A stretch of DNA of 64,000 nt from Candidatus Altiarchaeota archaeon (GTDB taxonomy: Archaea > Altiarchaeota > Altiarchaeia > IMC4 > QMZM01). Below, piece by piece: positions 5,613 through 64,000 of this stretch. The stretch spans positions 36,458 to 100,457 of the forward strand of contig JAWAEV010000001.1 of the NCBI GenBank assembly GCA_038891095.1, given 5' to 3'. Made by a program: the position numbers and the translations under genes. How positions within the stretch are numbered: the first letter of the stretch is position 1; every line of letters begins with the position of its first letter. The notes beneath the pieces were generated by a model that saw only the letters and a program-made list of their open reading frames with translations, was not told the DNA's origin and did no database searches.

Positions 5613-6700
5613 AAAAATTTGAGCTTTTTTATGACACTGAAACTGGAGAAGCATTTTTTCAGGGAATAAATGTTGCAATAGAAGGTGAACACACAATGTT
5701 GAGTGAAATTCAGAAAGAATGTGAAAAGATAGTTGGACCTTCAACAAAGATAATGATGTATAATGCAGCAAAAAAATTTTCGAAAGAAATTTTTCCTTAT
5801 TATTTATCATACAAAGGTACGAAAGGGGAAGCAACTAATAGAGAGATTACTTTAGAACTTTTAGATTTATTGTCTAACTTAGGTTATGGCCTTTTTTCTA
5901 TAGAAAGTTATGATGAAAAAAATCTTGAATTTGGTGTTAAAGTAAAAAATTGTTGTAATGCACTAATTCATGGAAAATCTAACAAACAAATATGTTATGC
6001 AATTTCTGGAGTTTTAGCATGCCTATTTGAACTCGTATTTAGAAAAGAGATGTTTTGTGAAGAGATATCTTGCAACTCTCAAGGACATGAATTTTGCAGA
6101 TTTAAAATCACCTCTTCTGGAAGAGATATCAAAACAATTAAAGGGGAATGTAAAATAAAAATTCAAAAAGAAAAGGCTAAGAGAGAGTATATTTATTTTG
6201 ATGAGAGTACCGGTAAAATTAAAGTGAGAGGAATGAATGTACTTATCTTTCCTAGATGTTGGATTGCAGAAATTCAGAAAGAGTTTGAGAGGATTATCGG
6301 ACCAGCAACAAAAACAATATTTTACAATATAAACAAAAAATGTACTATTAACGATCTACCTAGCATTATCAACTCTAACATTATTGCTAAAATTTTAAAG
6401 AAACTATCAAAGAGAAAACTTATGTTTGAGTTATTTAGAGACGCAAATATGCTTGGGTATGGTATCATAGAACTTCAAGAGTTTAATGAAGATAGTGCTG
6501 AAATTAAGATAAAAATAAAAAATTGTTATAATTCTGTAGGTTATATAAATACAAAAAAACCGATATGTTATTACACCACTGGACTAATCTCAGGCGCTTC
6601 AGAAGTTATTTTTGAAAGAGGAATGGATTGTATTGAAACAAAATGTAAAGGCAAAGGAGATGATTATTGTGAATTTTATGCTCATCCAACAAAATATTAA
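5609..6700 (+). CDS. tandem V4R-domain protein (two modules)
   Basis: Two repeats of LGYG...K(P/Q)IC...G...E..C...G...C.F. Confidence 0.8.
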   Translation: MKKFELFYDTETGEAFFQGINVAIEGEHTMLSEIQKECEKIVGPSTKIMMYNAAKKFSKEIFPYYLSYKGTKGEATNREITLELLDLLSNLGYGLFSIESYDEKNLEFGVKVKNCCNALIHGKSNKQICYAISGVLACLFELVFRKEMFCEEISCNSQGHEFCRFKITSSGRDIKTIKGECKIKIQKEKAKREYIYFDESTGKIKVRGMNVLIFPRCWIAEIQKEFERIIGPATKTIFYNINKKCTINDLPSIINSNIIAKILKKLSKRKLMFELFRDANMLGYGIIELQEFNEDSAEIKIKIKNCYNSVGYINTKKPICYYTTGLISGASEVIFERGMDCIETKCKGKGDDYCEFYAHPTKY

Positions 6701-27687: not shown

Positions 27688-27961
27688 GGCAGTGACCATA
27701 GTCCATCTTCTGTCAGCTTTTTAAGCCACGCTTAAGTTAGCTGTTTTGGCATTCGTCTAAGCGTTTTAAAAAACTTGCACCCAACGCAACATTTGTCTCA
27801 CAAGATTTTGCAATTTTCTCTCAGATAGGATACTTCATAGAAATTGCAAAATCATCTCATCTCTCGTATGTTGCTTTGCCTCTCGGCAATTAAAAATTTA
27901 TTGGGTGGATGGAGCTTCCTCATTCTCATTTAAGAGAACGGTAGCCAAATGAGTCACTACC
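27688..27961 (-). ncRNA. rnpB: RNase P RNA, type-M-like
   Basis: Minus strand: P1 GGTAGTGAC/GTCACTGCC, GAGGAAGCTCCATCCACC, GGGTGCAAG, CGCTTAGACGAATG, ACAGAAGATGGACTA. Confidence 0.9.
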
Positions 27962-28000
27962 TCCGAATATTTCTTTGACATAGATAGTTTATCGCTAGGA

Positions 28001-30913
<2,913 letters not shown>

Positions 30914-31087
30914 TCTCTCTGGCGAACTATCTATGCACGGTATCATGATATCAACCCTTCACCCAAAACACTTTGGTTTTGAGTTGCATCTAAATTTTTA
31001 TTAATAAATTTTTATAATGAAATTAAGTAAGTATATTAAAATTTTATTTATTTTAACCATATCAATTAAATCCCGACGAGCAGAGAT

Positions 31088-31161
31088 TGGACCCGTCGGG
31101 ATTTGAACCCGAGGCCTTCCGCTTGCAAAGCGGACGATCTACCAGACTGATCTACGGGCCC
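31088..31161 (-). tRNA. tRNA-Ala(UGC)
   Basis: GGGCCCG...TTGCAA...GGTTCAAATCC...CGGGTCCA cloverleaf in the 16S-23S spacer. Confidence 0.95.
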
Positions 31162-31290
31162 GTATAAGGCCTAAAGCCATCATGGCCCAAAATAGTAACA
31201 TAAAGCAAATTATTCTTTTTAATTGTTTTTTATTTTCTCTGTTCTCTAAGCTCTTAACTCTTAATCTATCTTTACTCTACTTTACTTAAT

Positions 31291-32891
<1,601 letters not shown>

Positions 32892-58289: not shown

Positions 58290-60608
58290 TTAAAAATTTT
58301 CAATTTTAACAATTTTTGGTTTTGCTTTTTGTGCAAATGGTGCTAAAATAAATTTTTCTTCCTTTTCTATCTTTACTTTTTCTTCCTTAGATAGTTCTTC
58401 TATGTCTTTAATTGGATATGCTCTTATTTCCTGTCCTCCTTTTTCCACTTCTGTAACCTCTTCTTTTAATTGCCTTACTTCTTTTTTACCCTTAACTCTT
58501 TCTACTTCAGCTTTTATGGCTCTCATTTCTGTAGTACCTTTTTCCTCCTTTTCAATTCCCTTTTCCTCTTTTGGAATTCCAACTATTTTAATGCCGTATT
58601 TCTCAGTAGCGTATTCCTCTAAGGTTTTTCCTTGCTCTGCTGCCTCTTTTTTAAGTTTTTCAATTTCCACCGCACTTAATGGTCTCTGAATGGCTTTTAT
58701 TCCTTCTAAGATTTTTTCCTCCTTTTCAATTCCCTTTTCCTCTTTTGGAATTCCAACTATTTTAATGCCGTATTTCTCAGTAGCGTATTCCTCTAAGGTT
58801 TTTCCTTGCTCTGCTGCCTCTTTTTTAAGTTGCTCATAGAGCTCTAAATTTTCCTCTTTGAGTGTCTCATAGGAGACTTCACCATATTCATCAGCTAAGT
58901 CCTTTAATAAAGGCTCAGTTTCCTTTGGTTTTACATCGACTTTAATATCAACAAAATTCTTAAAGCCCTCTCTACAAGTAACAAAGATTGTGCCCTCATA
59001 AGTTTTTATTTTTGCATCTTCCATTACAGTGATTTTAACTTTTATTGCTTTTACCTCACCTGGTTTTAAATCAAATTTCTTCTCACTATAATCAACAAGT
59101 ATGTCCTCTTCTGCAAGATCCTGCTCAATAAAGTTTATGCTATGCAAAACTAAAGGAGTTAGATTCTCAACATTAAGTGTGAATTTTGTGCTGTTATCTC
59201 TTTCAACTGAAACTGCAACTTGAGCAGGCTTTACTTTTAGCCCTAACTTGACAATAATCTCTTTTTCAGCCTTAGAAAGTTCTTTTAGAGAAGGTCTCTT
59301 AGCTTCAGTGACAGGAGTTATAGTTATCGTTTTAGGATACTCTACAACATATGGCTCTTTCTTTTCTATAACTTTCATGCCATACCACTCAGCAATATAC
59401 TCCTGCATTGACATTTCTTTCTTTTTTGCTTCTTCTTCAAGTTCTCTGTAAAGTTCTCTTTGGTGTTTTAATCTCTCTAAAGCAATCCTCCGCTTTCTAT
59501 CAGAAAGCTCCTTCAGTTGCTCTTCAATTTCTTTCTCAGAAAGTCTTTCTTTTAGTTCTGGAATTAAAGTTTGTTCAAATTTATTAAAATTTTTTGAAAT
59601 TTTTTTGGCTAAGATTTTTCTTAGATAATTTGTGATGTAGAACATCCCAACTGGGGAGAAAATTAAAAGTAAAGTTCCAGCAATTCCAAATGCACTAAAT
59701 TCATATAGTATGGAATGCAATAAATTTTCCCCTATAGCGACAGAGACAACTACAATTGCAAAGCTCACTGGTAGAAAAACACAAAAAAATATCATTGCTA
59801 TTAAAATTTTTCCAATGTCTCTTGTTAGTGAAAATCCAAATAAAAATATTGCAATTGGCATTAACACGGCTAAAATTATAACAAGGATATATCTCACAAT
59901 CAAAAAAAGAAATGCTCCAAGTGTTATCAAATAAGAAAGTAAGATTAATATAGCCCCAAAATTTATATTTCCAACTCCAACATTTTGTGTCATTCTCGCA
60001 AAATTTAGAATTGTGCTCTCATGTATTTCAAGAAAATTTCTCGGAGCAAAAGAAAGAATGTTTTGGGTTAATGCATTTGATGTTGAAAGCAAAATTTTCA
60101 TTATTTCGGGAGAGATTGAGATTAGAACCATGCTTAATATGAGCCGCAGTAAGTAAGATTTTGCTCTTGCTCTTCCCATTGGTGAAGCAGAAATAAAAAT
60201 CAGGTAAATGCCTATTAAAGTAATTGCAGTAACATATAATGGAGCGAGAATTTTAATTGTATACGAAATCAAAATTAAAATTCTTTGATCTGAAATTTCA
60301 GGATTCTGCAAGAGAAGAGATTCAAAATTTCCATAAGTTATTTTTGATAATTCTAAAATTTCCTTTGTAGATGCTGAAATTAAAAGAAAATTCTGTATAA
60401 AGTTCCCAAGGAAGTATGTTAACGCATCTGTTGTGCCTTCAAGAAATTCGCTCCACATAGGAACTTTTTCATTTGGCTCATATGTGCTGGCATTTCCATT
60501 TGCACTTATCTGTAAGGATAGGAATAAAATGACAAAAACAAGAGAGGTTAATCTAAACCATATCCTTAAAATTTTTTCTTTCTCTGAGAGCCTAAATTTT
60601 TTATTCAT
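58290..60608 (-). CDS. VirB6/TrbL-like polytopic membrane protein with long C-terminal tail (Ig-like domain and repeats)
   Basis: Shared core SP.GRA.AK..L.RL, RY..IL....P; tail DLKPGEVKAIKV. Confidence 0.55.
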   Translation of the reverse strand: MNKKFRLSEKEKILRIWFRLTSLVFVILFLSLQISANGNASTYEPNEKVPMWSEFLEGTTDALTYFLGNFIQNFLLISASTKEILELSKITYGNFESLLLQNPEISDQRILILISYTIKILAPLYVTAITLIGIYLIFISASPMGRARAKSYLLRLILSMVLISISPEIMKILLSTSNALTQNILSFAPRNFLEIHESTILNFARMTQNVGVGNINFGAILILLSYLITLGAFLFLIVRYILVIILAVLMPIAIFLFGFSLTRDIGKILIAMIFFCVFLPVSFAIVVVSVAIGENLLHSILYEFSAFGIAGTLLLIFSPVGMFYITNYLRKILAKKISKNFNKFEQTLIPELKERLSEKEIEEQLKELSDRKRRIALERLKHQRELYRELEEEAKKKEMSMQEYIAEWYGMKVIEKKEPYVVEYPKTITITPVTEAKRPSLKELSKAEKEIIVKLGLKVKPAQVAVSVERDNSTKFTLNVENLTPLVLHSINFIEQDLAEEDILVDYSEKKFDLKPGEVKAIKVKITVMEDAKIKTYEGTIFVTCREGFKNFVDIKVDVKPKETEPLLKDLADEYGEVSYETLKEENLELYEQLKKEAAEQGKTLEEYATEKYGIKIVGIPKEEKGIEKEEKILEGIKAIQRPLSAVEIEKLKKEAAEQGKTLEEYATEKYGIKIVGIPKEEKGIEKEEKGTTEMRAIKAEVERVKGKKEVRQLKEEVTEVEKGGQEIRAYPIKDIEELSKEEKVKIEKEEKFILAPFAQKAKPKIVKIENF
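58539..58831. repeat. exact 119-bp direct repeat (58539-58657 and 58713-58831), in frame
   Basis: Identical sequence at 174-bp offset encoding LKKEAAEQGKTLEEYATEKYGIKIVGIPKEEKGIEKEEK. Confidence 0.9.
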
Positions 60609-61657
60609 TCTAAAATAAATTTGTCTATCTCAAAACTTATTTTTTGCTTTATTGTTATTACTATTGCAGAACCCAAAAGGAGATCTAATATTTTAATAAA
60701 AATAAGGGGTGAAATTATAAGTAGGAGATAACCTGCTAGAGATATAAACAACTTTAGTGGTATGAAATTCACTGAATAAAAGCTTACTGATGCTGCACCT
60801 ATGATAAATGCATTGAAAATTGGTAGAAATATCCACATAAGACTAACACTAATTATAATTTTACCTGATCTGCTTAATGGAGCAAATGAGTAAAGAAAGA
60901 CGGCAAATGGGAAAATCGCGGTAATTAGGATTATAGCAAGATATCTCACTGAGAGAATTATCAACACTAAGATAGGTAACAGAATGGAAAGCAAAAGGAA
61001 AAATGAGCCAGGAATTGGTTTAAAGAAAGTTACTATAGCAAAATATGCCATAAAAAACTCGATAGAAAATTTAAAAATTTCTGTGTTTGGCTGAAATATT
61101 GCTATAACTATTGATGCAAATGAATGTGAAATTTCAAGCAAAAGTTGTATTATTGGTAAAGTTAGCATTATTATCCCTAAGCCTATGATAAGTCTTACTA
61201 ATGTTGCTTTTGCATTTGTCCTTCCTCTTGGAGAAGCAGAGAGAAAAAGTAGGTAAATAGCTGTGAGTAAAATTGCGATAATGTATAAAGGCTCTAAGAT
61301 CGAAATTGAAGTTGAGAGAAGTGTTTTTATTTTGCTATGGGAAACATCTGGAACAGCCATTGTAAAAGGGATTAAAATTTCAGTATACTTCTGCATTAAG
61401 TTATCCATCGCTCTTGAAATTTTATGTATGAGCTCCGCTCTTCTTGAAAGTTCATAGAAAAATTCAGGATATTTCTCTCTGTAGCTTTGGGCTATTTCAT
61501 TTAATTTTCTCATTAATGCTTCTGAATTTCTAGCAAATGGAATTATGCTATCATCAGATTGCCAAGTAAATTGTGCTCTTATTTGTGAGATTATAAGCAG
61601 GATTACTAAAATTGCAAAAATTATCCTTGCTATTAAAACAATTTCCTTTATTTTCAT
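60605..61657 (-). CDS. VirB6/TrbL-like membrane protein paralog
   Basis: EPLYII...SASPRGRTNAKATLVRL...RYLAIIL...FP. Confidence 0.55.
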   Translation of the reverse strand: MKIKEIVLIARIIFAILVILLIISQIRAQFTWQSDDSIIPFARNSEALMRKLNEIAQSYREKYPEFFYELSRRAELIHKISRAMDNLMQKYTEILIPFTMAVPDVSHSKIKTLLSTSISILEPLYIIAILLTAIYLLFLSASPRGRTNAKATLVRLIIGLGIIMLTLPIIQLLLEISHSFASIVIAIFQPNTEIFKFSIEFFMAYFAIVTFFKPIPGSFFLLLSILLPILVLIILSVRYLAIILITAIFPFAVFLYSFAPLSRSGKIIISVSLMWIFLPIFNAFIIGAASVSFYSVNFIPLKLFISLAGYLLLIISPLIFIKILDLLLGSAIVITIKQKISFEIDKFILE

Positions 61658-63147
61658 CTTCCTAGGAAGTTTCTGAATTTTATTGAAATGAAAATTGGTG
61701 TTATTGCTAACATTAATAAAGAGGAAATTTCCATTATTATTCTTAATTCAAATGGTGCAACAAATGTTTGCATTCCTGAAATCATTTTAATTCCAACCAT
61801 AGAAATCGAAAAAACAAAAGCCATTGCTATTTGTGATAATGTCCAAAGTACAGTTTGTTCAAAAAGAAGTTTTGAAATTCCTCTTGTTAATTTTAATGGG
61901 TAGAGTAAAATCGCAAAAGGAAATAAAGTTGCTAATGTGAGAAGGATAAAATATCTAAGCTTTAGTATAAGGATAAGAATAAATATGGCGAAATAAGGGT
62001 AAACGAGGAAGGGCATTGTAGGAATTTCTTCTAATTTAGCGTATTCTTCAGCATTAGAGAGCAAATAGGTTATGCTCTCAAAAAAAATTTTTTCTTTCTC
62101 TATTGGTATCTGTGCTAATATAATTTGTGTTATGCCATGAGAAATGCCAAAGAATAAAGTTAATAATAATGGTGAGACTGTTATCAAACACATTGAAATT
62201 ATCAAAAAAAGTAGTGATGACTTCGCTCTAACTCTCGCTTCTGGTGAGCCAGAGAAAAACAGTAAATAGATTCCAACCACAAGAGTTAATGTTACATATA
62301 ATGGAGTTAAAATTGAGATTATTGCATTTATAATACATCTTATGTTACATAACTCCCTGCTCTCAAGGCATTCTATTGATAAGCTACTTAACATTGAGTT
62401 TGATGTATCTAATGCCAAAGCAATAACTCCTGCTTCAGAAGAAATTTCTCTGTATATTTCTGAAAGTTTTTTATCACATGTTATCTTATAGAACTTTCCT
62501 CTTGTGATAGAAGAAATTTCCAAAAGAAAATTCTCATCCGCATCATCGCCTAAGGCAATTGTATAAATTCTAATTCCTTTTGCTCTCGCAAAATTTGCTG
62601 CTTGCAAAGCTAAATTTTTACTTGAAGATGTGTGACCATCAGTAATAAGCACTATATCTTTTCTTTCATCAACTACTGAAAGAGCTTCAATTGCTTTGAG
62701 TATGCCACAATGCACACACGAAAGACCACTTGGTTTATAGAGAGAAATTTTTTTATGTAAAAAATTTTTATCTTTGCTTGGCAGTGAATCTATAACTGCT
62801 TCATCTTTGAAAGAAACTAAAGCAATCGGTTTTTCTTTTGAGAGAGAAATATCAACAAAACCATAAGCTGCTTCTTTTATTGCTAAAATTTTTGTCTCTG
62901 TTATTGAAGTGTTAATTATGCCTACTTTTTTCTCTTCAACAAATGAAGGATTTTCAAGTATAAGCATATCAAAATTTTCCAATAATGTCAGAAGTTCAAT
63001 GCTAAGGCGATAGTATTCATGGAATACATCTGTTCTAAATTTTAGACTTAAAATTTCGCTGAAGATACTGGATATATCGACAGCGGTTGCATTTTGAACT
63101 AAGAGCATTGCTATTAAGCCTATTACCACAAATTGAATTTTTTTCAT
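61654..63147 (-). CDS. VirB6/TrbL-like membrane protein with inserted vWA domain
   Basis: LITDG, IYTIALG, LDTSNSM; core SGSPEARVRAKSSL...RYFILL...FP. Confidence 0.6.
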   Translation of the reverse strand: MKKIQFVVIGLIAMLLVQNATAVDISSIFSEILSLKFRTDVFHEYYRLSIELLTLLENFDMLILENPSFVEEKKVGIINTSITETKILAIKEAAYGFVDISLSKEKPIALVSFKDEAVIDSLPSKDKNFLHKKISLYKPSGLSCVHCGILKAIEALSVVDERKDIVLITDGHTSSSKNLALQAANFARAKGIRIYTIALGDDADENFLLEISSITRGKFYKITCDKKLSEIYREISSEAGVIALALDTSNSMLSSLSIECLESRELCNIRCIINAIISILTPLYVTLTLVVGIYLLFFSGSPEARVRAKSSLLFLIISMCLITVSPLLLTLFFGISHGITQIILAQIPIEKEKIFFESITYLLSNAEEYAKLEEIPTMPFLVYPYFAIFILILILKLRYFILLTLATLFPFAILLYPLKLTRGISKLLFEQTVLWTLSQIAMAFVFSISMVGIKMISGMQTFVAPFELRIIMEISSLLMLAITPIFISIKFRNFLGR

Positions 63148-64000
63148 GGCAAGAATCTTTTCATTATTATGAATAAAGCTATTGGAGAAGATATAAATAA
63201 CAACGAGGCTGTGAATCCAATAAAAAGCAAGAGATCATGAGAGAGTATACTTGCTGAAATATTCCCTATTGTGAAAACAAGTGCTAAAATTACCTGAGAG
63301 AAAGACCATATAAAAACCTGCTCAAAAATTTTTCTGCCAACTGTTTTTGTTGTGTTGAAAAAATAGAAGAATATACCAAGAGGCATTAAAATTGAAAATA
63401 TCGTTAGCAATAAATATCTAAGAGAAAGAATTGAAAAAATTCCAAAAAATAGTAAAATTTCGATCATCAAAAATATATGACCGCCAGAAAATGAAATAGC
63501 TGTCTTTGTTGCAAATTCATTTGAAAAACGTATTATCGCATCCCTGAAAATATTTGCTCCTTGTGGATTAAAATTCAGGATATCTGAAGTTAAATTTTCA
63601 GATGCTGAGAAAATGAATTTTAGTATAGGTATGCTAAGAGTAACGAGAAACATACTTATTAAAAGCCTCAAAAGTAGAGATTTTGCATTTGCCCTTCCTC
63701 TTGGCGAGGAGGACATTAGTATTAGATAGAATCCACATAAAATTATTGTAATAACATAGAATGGCTCAAGAAGGTTTATGAAAAAGACTAATGCACCATT
63801 AATCAGCGGGTTATCTAACTGAGGATTTTGAAGTATCATTAATTGTAAGTTGTCATAGAATATTAAAATAGAGGGCAAAAGAACATTATAAAAAACTCCT
63901 ATAAAAATTCCCCTCCAATTAAATTCTAAAGCTAACTTCTCTATTGCTACATCTCCAAATGTCTTACCATGAGTTACTGTTGATATAGTTATTAAAACTG
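63144..64000 (-). CDS. VirB6/TrbL-like membrane protein paralog; start lies beyond the right edge
   Basis: Frame stays open to 64000; LQNP...EPFYV...SSSPRGRANAKSLLLRL...RYLLL...MP. Confidence 0.55.
   Translation of the reverse strand, partial: VLITISTVTHGKTFGDVAIEKLALEFNWRGIFIGVFYNVLLPSILIFYDNLQLMILQNPQLDNPLINGALVFFINLLEPFYVITIILCGFYLILMSSSPRGRANAKSLLLRLLISMFLVTLSIPILKFIFSASENLTSDILNFNPQGANIFRDAIIRFSNEFATKTAISFSGGHIFLMIEILLFFGIFSILSLRYLLLTIFSILMPLGIFFYFFNTTKTVGRKIFEQVFIWSFSQVILALVFTIGNISASILSHDLLLFIGFTASLLFISSPIALFIIMKRFLP

Follow-up and report, generated by a model that had tools for sequence, protein, structure and literature searches.

Five-gene arrays of probable VirB6-type membrane subunits in a Candidatus Altiarchaeota genome

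Introduction

Subunits of the VirB6 type are polytopic membrane proteins of type IV secretion systems (T4SSs), and T4SS-like machines are thought to be central to the cell-to-cell lifestyle of ultra-small, probably host-dependent microbes. Here, we analyse a 64,000-nucleotide stretch of DNA (the window) from a Candidatus Altiarchaeota archaeon (GenBank assembly GCA_038891095.1, contig JAWAEV010000001.1, positions 36,458 to 100,457 of the forward strand). The window ends within a tandem array of five paralogous genes, which we read as encoding probable VirB6-type subunits of a chromosomal T4SS-like apparatus.

Dot/Icm, a diderm machine of about 27 parts, injects effectors. Its subunit DotA (PDB 9NGY) has a VirB6-like helical core with a large extra domain inserted between the helices, and the DotA pentamer is described as being topped by a secreted partner, IcmX. 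TrwI, the VirB6 protein of plasmid R388 (PDB 7O3V chain F; 8RT9, 8RTD), is the product of one gene of a diderm plasmid system and works with VirB4, VirB3 and VirB2. A preprint on the Dot/Icm machine in situ describes DotA and VirB6 alike as pentamers, each protein having two transmembrane helices at its N-terminus plus five hydrophobic helices (10.1101/2025.06.23.660953). The archaeal Ced and Ted systems, with their subunits CedA and TedA, are chromosomal, relaxase-less derivatives of conjugation that combine VirB6-, VirB2- and VirB4-like parts and hold a single VirB6-like gene. As reported by Beltran et al. (PMC9905601), the homology of the CedA N-terminus extends over almost the entire CedA1 pilin, and in A. 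tumefaciens VirB6 is related to VirB2 in the same way.

In Rickettsia, five VirB6 paralogues that have diverged strongly, RvhB6a-e, are encoded in tandem, and some of them bear large terminal extensions. These are recognisable TrbL-family members within a full rvh T4SS, and whether they mix in one complex is described as an open question (PMC8035066). Patescibacteria, which are ultra-small and host-dependent, are described as carrying a chromosomal, mostly relaxase-less MPF-FATA-like T4SS with VirB4, PrgI/VirB3, VirB6 and PF18895 pilins; their pilin genes occur in tandem arrays of 2-11 with about 25% identity (PMC12102498). According to the same source, the VirB6 component is often reported missing or too diverged to be recognised in the T4SS-like machines of ultra-small microbes. 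New here are near-constant five-gene arrays with position-specific ancient clades, and two conserved array types that follow giant secreted proteins.

Results

Organization of the array

The window corresponds to G000:C1:36458-100457, where G000 denotes the source genome (958,546 bases in 15 contigs, rated 93.65% complete). Open reading frames (ORFs) were called and translated, the window was scanned with Rfam and Pfam, and array membership was assigned by a family profile search. Four array genes lie at the end of the window (Table 1). Their three junctions, at 60605-60608, 61654-61657 and 63144-63147, all read ATGA, a 4-nt overlap of stop and start codons. The array proteins share a core of about 250 amino acids (aa) with 27-32% identity and the invariant residues P, Y-L, S..P..R..AK, RY and P, and the window genes match the family profile with E-values of 4e-61 to 1e-82. 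Outside the core they differ, as the 350-aa protein has no add-on, the 497-aa protein carries a vWA domain, and the 772-aa protein ends in a charged 446-aa tail with a beta-sandwich and repeats. An earlier reading of the letters of this DNA, hereafter the sequence-only reading, had described the overlaps, the core motifs and these add-ons correctly. It had further proposed four or more genes running past the window; the array does continue, and the exact count is five, with one more gene of 298 aa outside.

The start of the position-2 gene is unreadable owing to a short run of N at G000:C1 about 100458-100470 (about 6459-6470 of stretch L004), between positions 1 and 2. Its first in-frame start gives a protein of 244 aa, while orthologues measure about 306-310 aa. 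Beyond position 1, on the same strand, follow genes for a secreted 527-aa protein and then a secreted 1671-aa giant protein, the latter at the operon head. A second array of five paralogues (391, 324, 349, 367 and 402 aa) is located on contig 5, after a secreted 1315-aa protein, and all 10 family copies of the genome fall in its two arrays.

Table 1 Features of the array. Coordinates are window positions, except for array position 1, which is given on the contig.
Feature	Coordinates	Strand	Description	Basis
Array position 5	58290..60608	minus	772 aa, final gene in transcription order; VirB6-like core about residues 95-345, then 446-aa charged C-terminal tail	ORF; family profile E 1.6e-78; A_p5 clade, support 0.99
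C-terminal tail of position 5	58293..59606	minus		AlphaFold2 model, pLDDT 76.7; charge counts; repeats
Ig-like (PapD/ASH/fn3-type) beta-sandwich within the position-5 tail	58929..59261	minus	Residues about 450-560	
Array position 4	60605..61657	minus	350 aa; VirB6-like core, no add-on; modelled protein	ORF; AlphaFold2 model
First transmembrane hairpin of position 4	61166..61336	minus	Residues 108-164; VirB2-pilin-like	Pfam T4SS_pilin, residues 116-172
Array position 3	61654..63147	minus	497 aa; signal/anchor helix, vWA domain (predicted extracellular), VirB6-like core about residues 262-497	ORF; family profile E 3.8e-61
vWA domain of position 3	62452..62907	minus	Residues 81-232	Pfam VWA E 1.6e-9
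Array position 2	63144..64000	minus	>284 aa; core complete, ORF open at window end	Family profile E 1e-82
Array position 1	G000:C1:100501-101397	minus	298 aa; outside the window	Family profile match

Predicted fold of the shared core

The 350-aa protein at position 4 was modelled with AlphaFold2 from a 90-sequence alignment, yielding a predicted local distance difference test score (pLDDT) of 92.3 and a predicted template modelling score (pTM) of 0.81. In the model, a signal/anchor helix is followed by about 60 residues of soluble helices, a two-helix hairpin and five further hydrophobic helices. The core helices span residues 108-139, 143-164, 166-188, 194-212, 214-257, 259-295 and 299-349. 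This predicted architecture fits the layout of TMI, TMII and HH1-HH5 in DotA and VirB6.

Two mutually independent fold searches, VIA-align and Foldseek, both placed solved VirB6-type proteins at the top. VIA-align, run on 48,161 chains, ranked DotA (9ngy) first with a Z-score of 10.6 (root-mean-square deviation 4.4, 197 residues aligned) and 7o3v_F second with 8.1 (219 aligned), ahead of an unrelated chain at 6.8. The identity of 7o3v_F as TrwI/VirB6 was confirmed by a PDB search with the trwI product of plasmid R388. Foldseek against the PDB returned TrwI chains of R388 VirB5-VirB6 stalk entries at ranks 1-4 (best E 0.026, probability 1.00, template modelling (TM) score 0.46 by target) and no match at E<=0.001. 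In the ESM Atlas, the nearest clusters carry TrbL_3, TrbL_4, TrbL_5 or TrbL. The structural neighbours there are TrbL_3 clusters with TM scores of 0.64-0.72, followed by CtnDOT TraJ and TraG_N; the commonest taxon of the nearest cluster is 'Candidatus Altarchaeota', and the closest structural cluster comes from Saccharimonadota. Since Z-scores of 8-11 are modest and, according to the tool's own note, possible by chance for helical bundles, the fold argument rests on which proteins rank first, namely two solved VirB6-type proteins. The comparison of the core fold with VirB6 thereby strengthens the tentative call of a VirB6-type channel subunit in the sequence-only reading. A transporter identity was rejected, as no transporter family or fold came near the top of any sequence or fold search.

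A pilin-like hairpin at the start of the core

T4SS_pilin (PF18895) is the only Pfam family matched by the core, and the match is confined to the first hairpin. It is found in 50 of 90 family members, with a best E-value of 4.7e-7. The window genes match weakly, at 13.5-31 bits depending on the search, and three of the ten copies in the genome exceed the model's cut-off in a six-frame search. At position 4, the hairpin loop is short and rich in K/R, with the pattern S-x-S-P-x-G-R-x-x-A-K. When the family was compared by hhalign with the 136-aa pilin of this genome, 47 columns could be aligned across the S-P-x-x-R-x-x-A-K loop at E 0.0019, with a probability of only 14%. Judged by these profile matches, the first hairpin of the core is homologous to VirB2-like pilins. 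Such a match is expected of a VirB6- or CedA-type protein and does not make the array proteins pilins, because CedA and VirB6 show the same N-terminal homology.

Extent of the protein family

A profile built from 15 sequences and searched against 1.84 billion representatives detected 1100 proteins at E<=0.001, of which 362 remain at 1e-10 and 189 at 1e-30. Family members are often extended, reaching up to 2012 aa, and 31 of 32 long members scanned match no Pfam family at E<=1e-4. It was the exhaustive profile search that revealed the family, as a word-indexed homologue search had returned only 6 close proteins. Similarly, the genome collection yielded no relatives when searched with a single protein or with an alignment of close orthologues, and another search of the genomes found the family. 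When the five paralogues were scanned with NCBIfam at E<=0.1, only the vWA part of one of them was matched and none of the cores. A sequence bridge to TrbL is provided by a 596-aa member in a VirB4 neighbourhood of a related genome (G042), one of 12 relatives' members scanned, which matches PF04610 at E 3.9e-4 with 20.7 bits, below the cut-off of 25.9.

Further T4SS components of the genome

Three consecutive genes of contig 2 encode a 136-aa T4SS_pilin/TrbC protein, a 298-aa PrgI/TrsD-like (PrgI/VirB3-like) protein and a 779-aa VirB4, the one VirB4 ATPase of the genome. This VirB4 reaches 326.5 bits against NCBIfam conju_CD1110 (cut-off 325) and 60.3 bits against CedB, and by these scores it belongs with the monoderm, CD1110/MPF-FATA-like VirB4 proteins. 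A six-frame search of the genome with PF18895 gave 24 matches, of which 16 exceed the cut-off. Four of them fall in genes situated 11-18 kb from the array, among genes for large secreted proteins (G000:C1:112149-118841; stretch coordinates L004:18150-20000 and L005:1043-4842). The sequence-only reading had seen no VirB4 and had advised looking for VirB4- or HerA-like ATPase and VirB2-like pilin genes past the window; pilin-domain genes are present there, and VirB4 resides on contig 2 and does not adjoin the array.

Neither of the two relaxase models PF03432 and PF08751 matched in the genome, other relaxase families not having been searched, and VirB5 and VirB7-11 were not found in it. Four other AAA_10-like ORFs were considered as coupling proteins and rejected, as they are HerA or HerA-like helicases. 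Of the four proteins with a pilin hairpin near the array, a 623-aa one also contains PKD domains and, fused to them, a cysteine peptidase of the papain family (Peptidase_C1, E 1.2e-30), and another of 535 aa has a weak M64-peptidase match. Because pilin hairpins are fused to PKD and peptidase domains, pilin-type membrane anchors appear to display enzymes and adhesion domains in this organism.

Arrays in related genomes

The family occurs in 47 of 61 genomes of the phylum, comprising the source genome, 20 of 21 others of the same taxonomic family, 26 of 27 in the rest of the order and none of 12 outside the order. VirB4 follows the same pattern and is present in 45 of the 61. Both are found in 44 genomes and neither in 13; these 13 are made up of the 12 from outside the order plus family f7, which is represented by one genome inside it.

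Twenty stretches were sampled for clustered family matches or VirB4, not at random, and together with the two arrays of the source genome 21 loci hold members. Exactly five members are present in 18 of these 21 examined arrays. Besides a four-member array taken up in the Discussion, the others are a four-member array abutting a contig start and a single member at a contig start. A FastTree phylogeny of 99 members over 300 columns, together with array sizes, was used to name two array types. Type A comprises seven arrays, including that of the window, and type B comprises ten, including that of contig 5. All ten position-by-type groups are monophyletic with Shimodaira-Hasegawa (SH)-like support of 0.95-1.0, also after 13 sequences were added, and the lone copy at a contig start groups with type A position 5. 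Deep nodes are unsupported (0.07-0.47) after the addition of these 13 sister-family members, and we draw no conclusion on whole-array duplication. The fixed number, the fixed order and the ancient position-specific clades argue for five subunits per array that are not interchangeable. The sequence-only reading had spoken of diversified subunits with swapped accessory domains. The paralogues are indeed diverged and their add-ons differ, but the pattern speaks less for free variation than for five fixed and ancient paralogues, each specific to its position, and the add-ons are not freely swapped, since the long tail is a constant feature of position 5.

Gene order around the arrays is likewise conserved. 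All seven type A arrays follow homologues of the 1671-aa vWA giant and of the 527-aa protein. Of the ten type B arrays, eight come after a homologue of the 1315-aa giant protein and the other two begin at a contig start; most are then followed by a membrane protein of about 200 aa and a pilin-like gene. In G026, one strand encodes the giant, five members of type B, the small membrane protein, the pilin-like protein, PrgI and VirB4 in this order. The type A arrays of G023 and G024 are 3.5-3.7 kb from VirB4, and a member lies within 10 kb of VirB4 in seven genomes. The operons of G037 and G050 run from pilin through a member of about 1700 aa, a member of about 680 aa and one ORF to PrgI and VirB4. 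The operon of G005 runs from a member through one ORF to PrgI and VirB4, and G042 shows part of the layout of G037 and G050. The sister families f2 and f6 have single or paired long members (596-1771 aa) in VirB4 operons and further pairs elsewhere. Together with VirB4, the PrgI/VirB3-like protein and the pilins of the source genome, this operon linkage in relatives supports the chromosomal T4SS-like apparatus that had been suggested from the window. With the fold result, it also runs counter to the case that the sequence-only reading had named as refuting its call, an unrelated transporter fold with neither secretion ATPase nor pilin in linkage.

Three loci from related genomes deserve separate mention. 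On contig 16 of G005 (L062:3868-6099), a 743-aa member ends in DNA-binding helix-hairpin-helix repeats (HHH_5 E 8e-19, HhH-GPD E 1.5e-6), a predicted feature which hints that at least some such machines may handle DNA. On contig 7 of G042 (L059:3585-7856), a 1423-aa member includes a calcineurin-like phosphoesterase (Metallophos, E 6.6e-5) in its extension, an example of an enzyme domain appended to a VirB6-like core. In G025 (L049:4656-13949), the five members, one of 1347 aa, cluster together and with sister-family members instead of with types A or B. This array may be a third type or reflect gene conversion, and we claim no independent expansion.

Add-on domains and predicted topology

The hairpin loop contains 3-4 K/R but lacks D/E, and the R-Y…F-P helix leads into another short K/R loop. 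Taken with the hydrophobic segments, these loop charges lead us to infer that the proteins adopt an N-out, C-in topology after the signal/anchor helix. With this topology, the vWA domain of position 3 would lie outside and the tail of position 5, which begins K/R-rich, would lie inside, probably in the cytoplasm.

The position-5 tail contains 91 K/R and 95 D/E among its 446 residues, with a K/R-rich stretch directly after the last hydrophobic helix. Its model comprises one confident beta-sandwich, with strands at tail residues 116-226 and pLDDT above 90, and three small strand/helix modules. The top Foldseek matches of the beta-sandwich are PapD/ASH/fn3-type domains, with E-values from 4e-7, and the region also has weak Pfam matches to Ig_GlcNase and fn3_5. 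The tail further holds two identical 36-aa repeats, and the motif E-Y/W-x-x-E-x-Y-G-x-K occurs three times (residues 403, 607 and 665), each within a small strand/helix module. A ribbon-helix-helix reading of these modules was discarded, as the ParD, FitA-like, RHH_5 and NikA-like matches (E 0.0075-0.59) are too weak to use. Position-5 proteins measure 583-772 aa in the seven type A arrays and in one lone copy at a contig end.

BLASTP aligned the vWA domain of position 3 over 204 aa with residues 677-878 of the 1671-aa giant of its own operon (36% identity, E 1e-25). Among type A arrays, vWA similarity at position 3 is seen only in the source genome, and therefore this domain looks like a recent local copy. 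In both vWA domains, the D-x-S-x-S metal-site motif falls after the Pfam vWA match (profile positions 11-172) and not before it. It is located at window positions 62380-62420 (residues about 243-253 of the 497-aa protein) and at residues about 860-870 of the 1671-aa protein (L004:8971-13986). This placement suggests that the two domains are circularly permuted or include a second, partial vWA unit.

Discussion

We conclude, with a probability of roughly 0.78, that the arrays encode VirB6-type polytopic membrane subunits of the TrwI/VirB6, DotA and CedA/TedA class, belonging to a chromosomal and apparently relaxase-less T4SS-like apparatus. The putative platform of array products probably works with a motor encoded elsewhere in the genome. 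The resemblance to TrwI/VirB6 lies in the helix layout and in the company of VirB4, VirB3-like and VirB2-like proteins; in contrast to the single homopentamer-forming gene of that plasmid system, each array holds five paralogues and is part of an archaeal chromosome, neither sequence nor profile comparison with TrwI gave a significant match, and no VirB5, VirB7-11 or relaxase was found. Like DotA, some array members join a large extra domain to the helical core, and the arrays are co-encoded with a secreted giant protein as DotA is capped by a secreted partner. Here, however, the extra domain is N-terminal (vWA) or C-terminal (tail) instead of inserted, and there is no sequence similarity. RvhB6a-e of Rickettsia are also a tandem five with terminal extensions, but they are bacterial and diderm, and the likeness is organisational only. 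The closest parallels, judged by the source passages cited here, are the system of Patescibacteria (PMC12102498) and, functionally, Ced/Ted. In Patescibacteria it is the pilin that is multiplied, whereas here the VirB6-like subunit is multiplied in fixed number and order. The match of the array hairpin to the pilin model parallels the pilin-like N-terminus of CedA, but Ced and Ted have one VirB6-like gene against five per array here, and the VirB4 of this genome is nearer CD1110 than CedB.

Several observations weigh against this interpretation. At the sequence level, PF04610 (TrbL) and PF19590 (TrbL_3) have no match in the source genome at E<=10, none of the 25 Pfam families with the most matches, out of 33 matched by 90 members at E<=1, is of TrbL type, and the family profile finds nothing among PDB sequences at E<=10. 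An hhalign comparison with 21 TrwI-type sequences is not significant (E 0.077, probability 0.7%; E 0.19 with TrwI alone), its 176 aligned columns being colinear and pairing the F-P…T-R…W motif of the family with G-P…T-x-R…W of TrwI. To this come the modest fold scores. At the genome level, the arrays of the source genome lie on contigs 1 and 5 and not beside VirB4 on contig 2. One VirB4 query found no VirB4 in three genomes with family members (G021, which is 92% complete, G022 and G044), one genome has VirB4 and no family member found (G030), and the co-occurrence counts come from related genomes that are not independent samples and several of which are incomplete. Furthermore, only DNA runs, and no RNA runs, are listed among the sequencing runs that contain the stretch.

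Under the VirB6-type interpretation, each array protein would be inserted with its N-terminal part outside and its C-terminus inside, and the five products of one array would assemble into one platform in the cytoplasmic membrane. This platform could carry pilins, the giant adhesin-like secreted protein from the operon head, or both, and would be driven by the shared VirB4. The external vWA domains of position 3 and of the giant protein may bind a partner cell, and the cytoplasmic tail of position 5 may be a docking site for the motor or for the cargo. With arrays of types A and B, on contigs 1 and 5, one motor would then have two alternative platforms. Candidate cargoes are DNA, as in Ced/Ted, or proteins and other molecules exchanged with a host cell. 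By analogy with the pentamers of VirB6 and DotA, we favour one copy of each product per platform and tentatively postulate that each array forms a heteropentamer, a fixed ring of one copy of each paralogue, with two rings (A and B) sharing one VirB4. This stoichiometry is possible, although short of probable. It is called into question by the array of G007, which has four members inside a complete chromosome and no degenerate fifth, and by the singles or pairs, and never fives, in f2 and f6.

VirB6-like proteins in sets of five could also act as alternatives, each forming a homo-oligomer that the cell uses individually or in alternation as a means of varying its surface specificity or its host range. 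Such use would agree with paralogues that are only 27-32% identical and differ in their add-ons, and with the homopentameric state of the solved TrwI and DotA assemblies (10.1101/2025.06.23.660953). The cited passages of the Rickettsia review leave heterogeneous and homogeneous complexes both open (PMC8035066), and the VirB2 arrays of Patescibacteria are interpreted there as variation (PMC12102498). Variation sets, however, normally change in copy number and order, whereas 18 of 21 arrays keep five genes in the same order and each position is an old, well-supported orthologue clade; the ATGA overlaps couple the translation of neighbours, which suits co-production. On balance, five alternative homo-oligomers seem unlikely to us. 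We give still less credence to the idea that the arrays have left the T4SS and serve, without VirB4, as a self-standing anchor or export platform for giant secreted proteins. Their constant place behind the giants (all seven of type A, eight of ten of type B), their lack of linkage to VirB4 in the source genome, and the members of G021 and G022, where the query used found no VirB4, would fit this idea. Against it stand the shared order-level distribution of family and VirB4, the five-gene arrays 3.5-3.7 kb from VirB4 in G023, G024 and G026, in the last on the same strand as PrgI and VirB4, and the pilin-like gene after type B arrays.

Finally, the proteins might be over-long VirB2-type pilins, acting as minor pilins or pilus anchors and not as platform subunits, a proposal for which T4SS_pilin as the sole Pfam match, in over half of the members scanned and above the cut-off in three copies of the genome, could be cited. 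A pilin is a short protein, essentially one two-helix hairpin, whereas the array proteins measure 244-772 aa and have a seven-helix core of about 250 aa, of which the match takes up some 57 residues, and the other five helices align with TrwI and DotA within the 197-219 superposed residues. Moreover, ordinary short pilins and pilin fusions exist separately in this genome, and resemblance of the N-terminus to a pilin has been published for CedA and VirB6 themselves (PMC9905601). We regard this proposal as very improbable.

As VirB6-type subunits, the members of this large unnamed family would fill the VirB6 gap for one archaeal order. The fixed five-gene sets make two questions testable outside pathogens, namely whether VirB6 paralogues mix and whether their number mirrors the pentamer. 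If the heteropentamer were true, single protomers could carry unique outward (vWA) or inward (tail) domains, and this archaeal lineage would be the first case in which gene order discloses both the stoichiometry and the asymmetry of a T4SS platform, as well as a tractable non-pathogen model for the use of multiple VirB6 paralogues. In open full-text literature, to which this survey of papers is confined (subscription journals were not covered), none pairs 'Altiarchaeota' with 'VirB4'. Open full texts with 'Altiarchaeota' and 'type IV secretion' include none that is about such a system by title or start of abstract, and those with DPANN, VirB6 and 'type IV secretion' include none that describes the array family, again as far as titles and abstract starts tell.

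Other features of the window

The window has a G+C content of about 30%. The stretch is contained in four DNA runs of one hot-springs study, labelled hot springs metagenome, and this DNA may originate from one of the four. Rfam identified archaeal large-subunit (LSU) and small-subunit (SSU) rRNA and RNase P RNA in the window. An SSU-tRNA-LSU operon on the minus strand (window 27688-32818) includes the archaeal RNase P RNA gene (27688-27961), which comes immediately behind the 23S rRNA gene.

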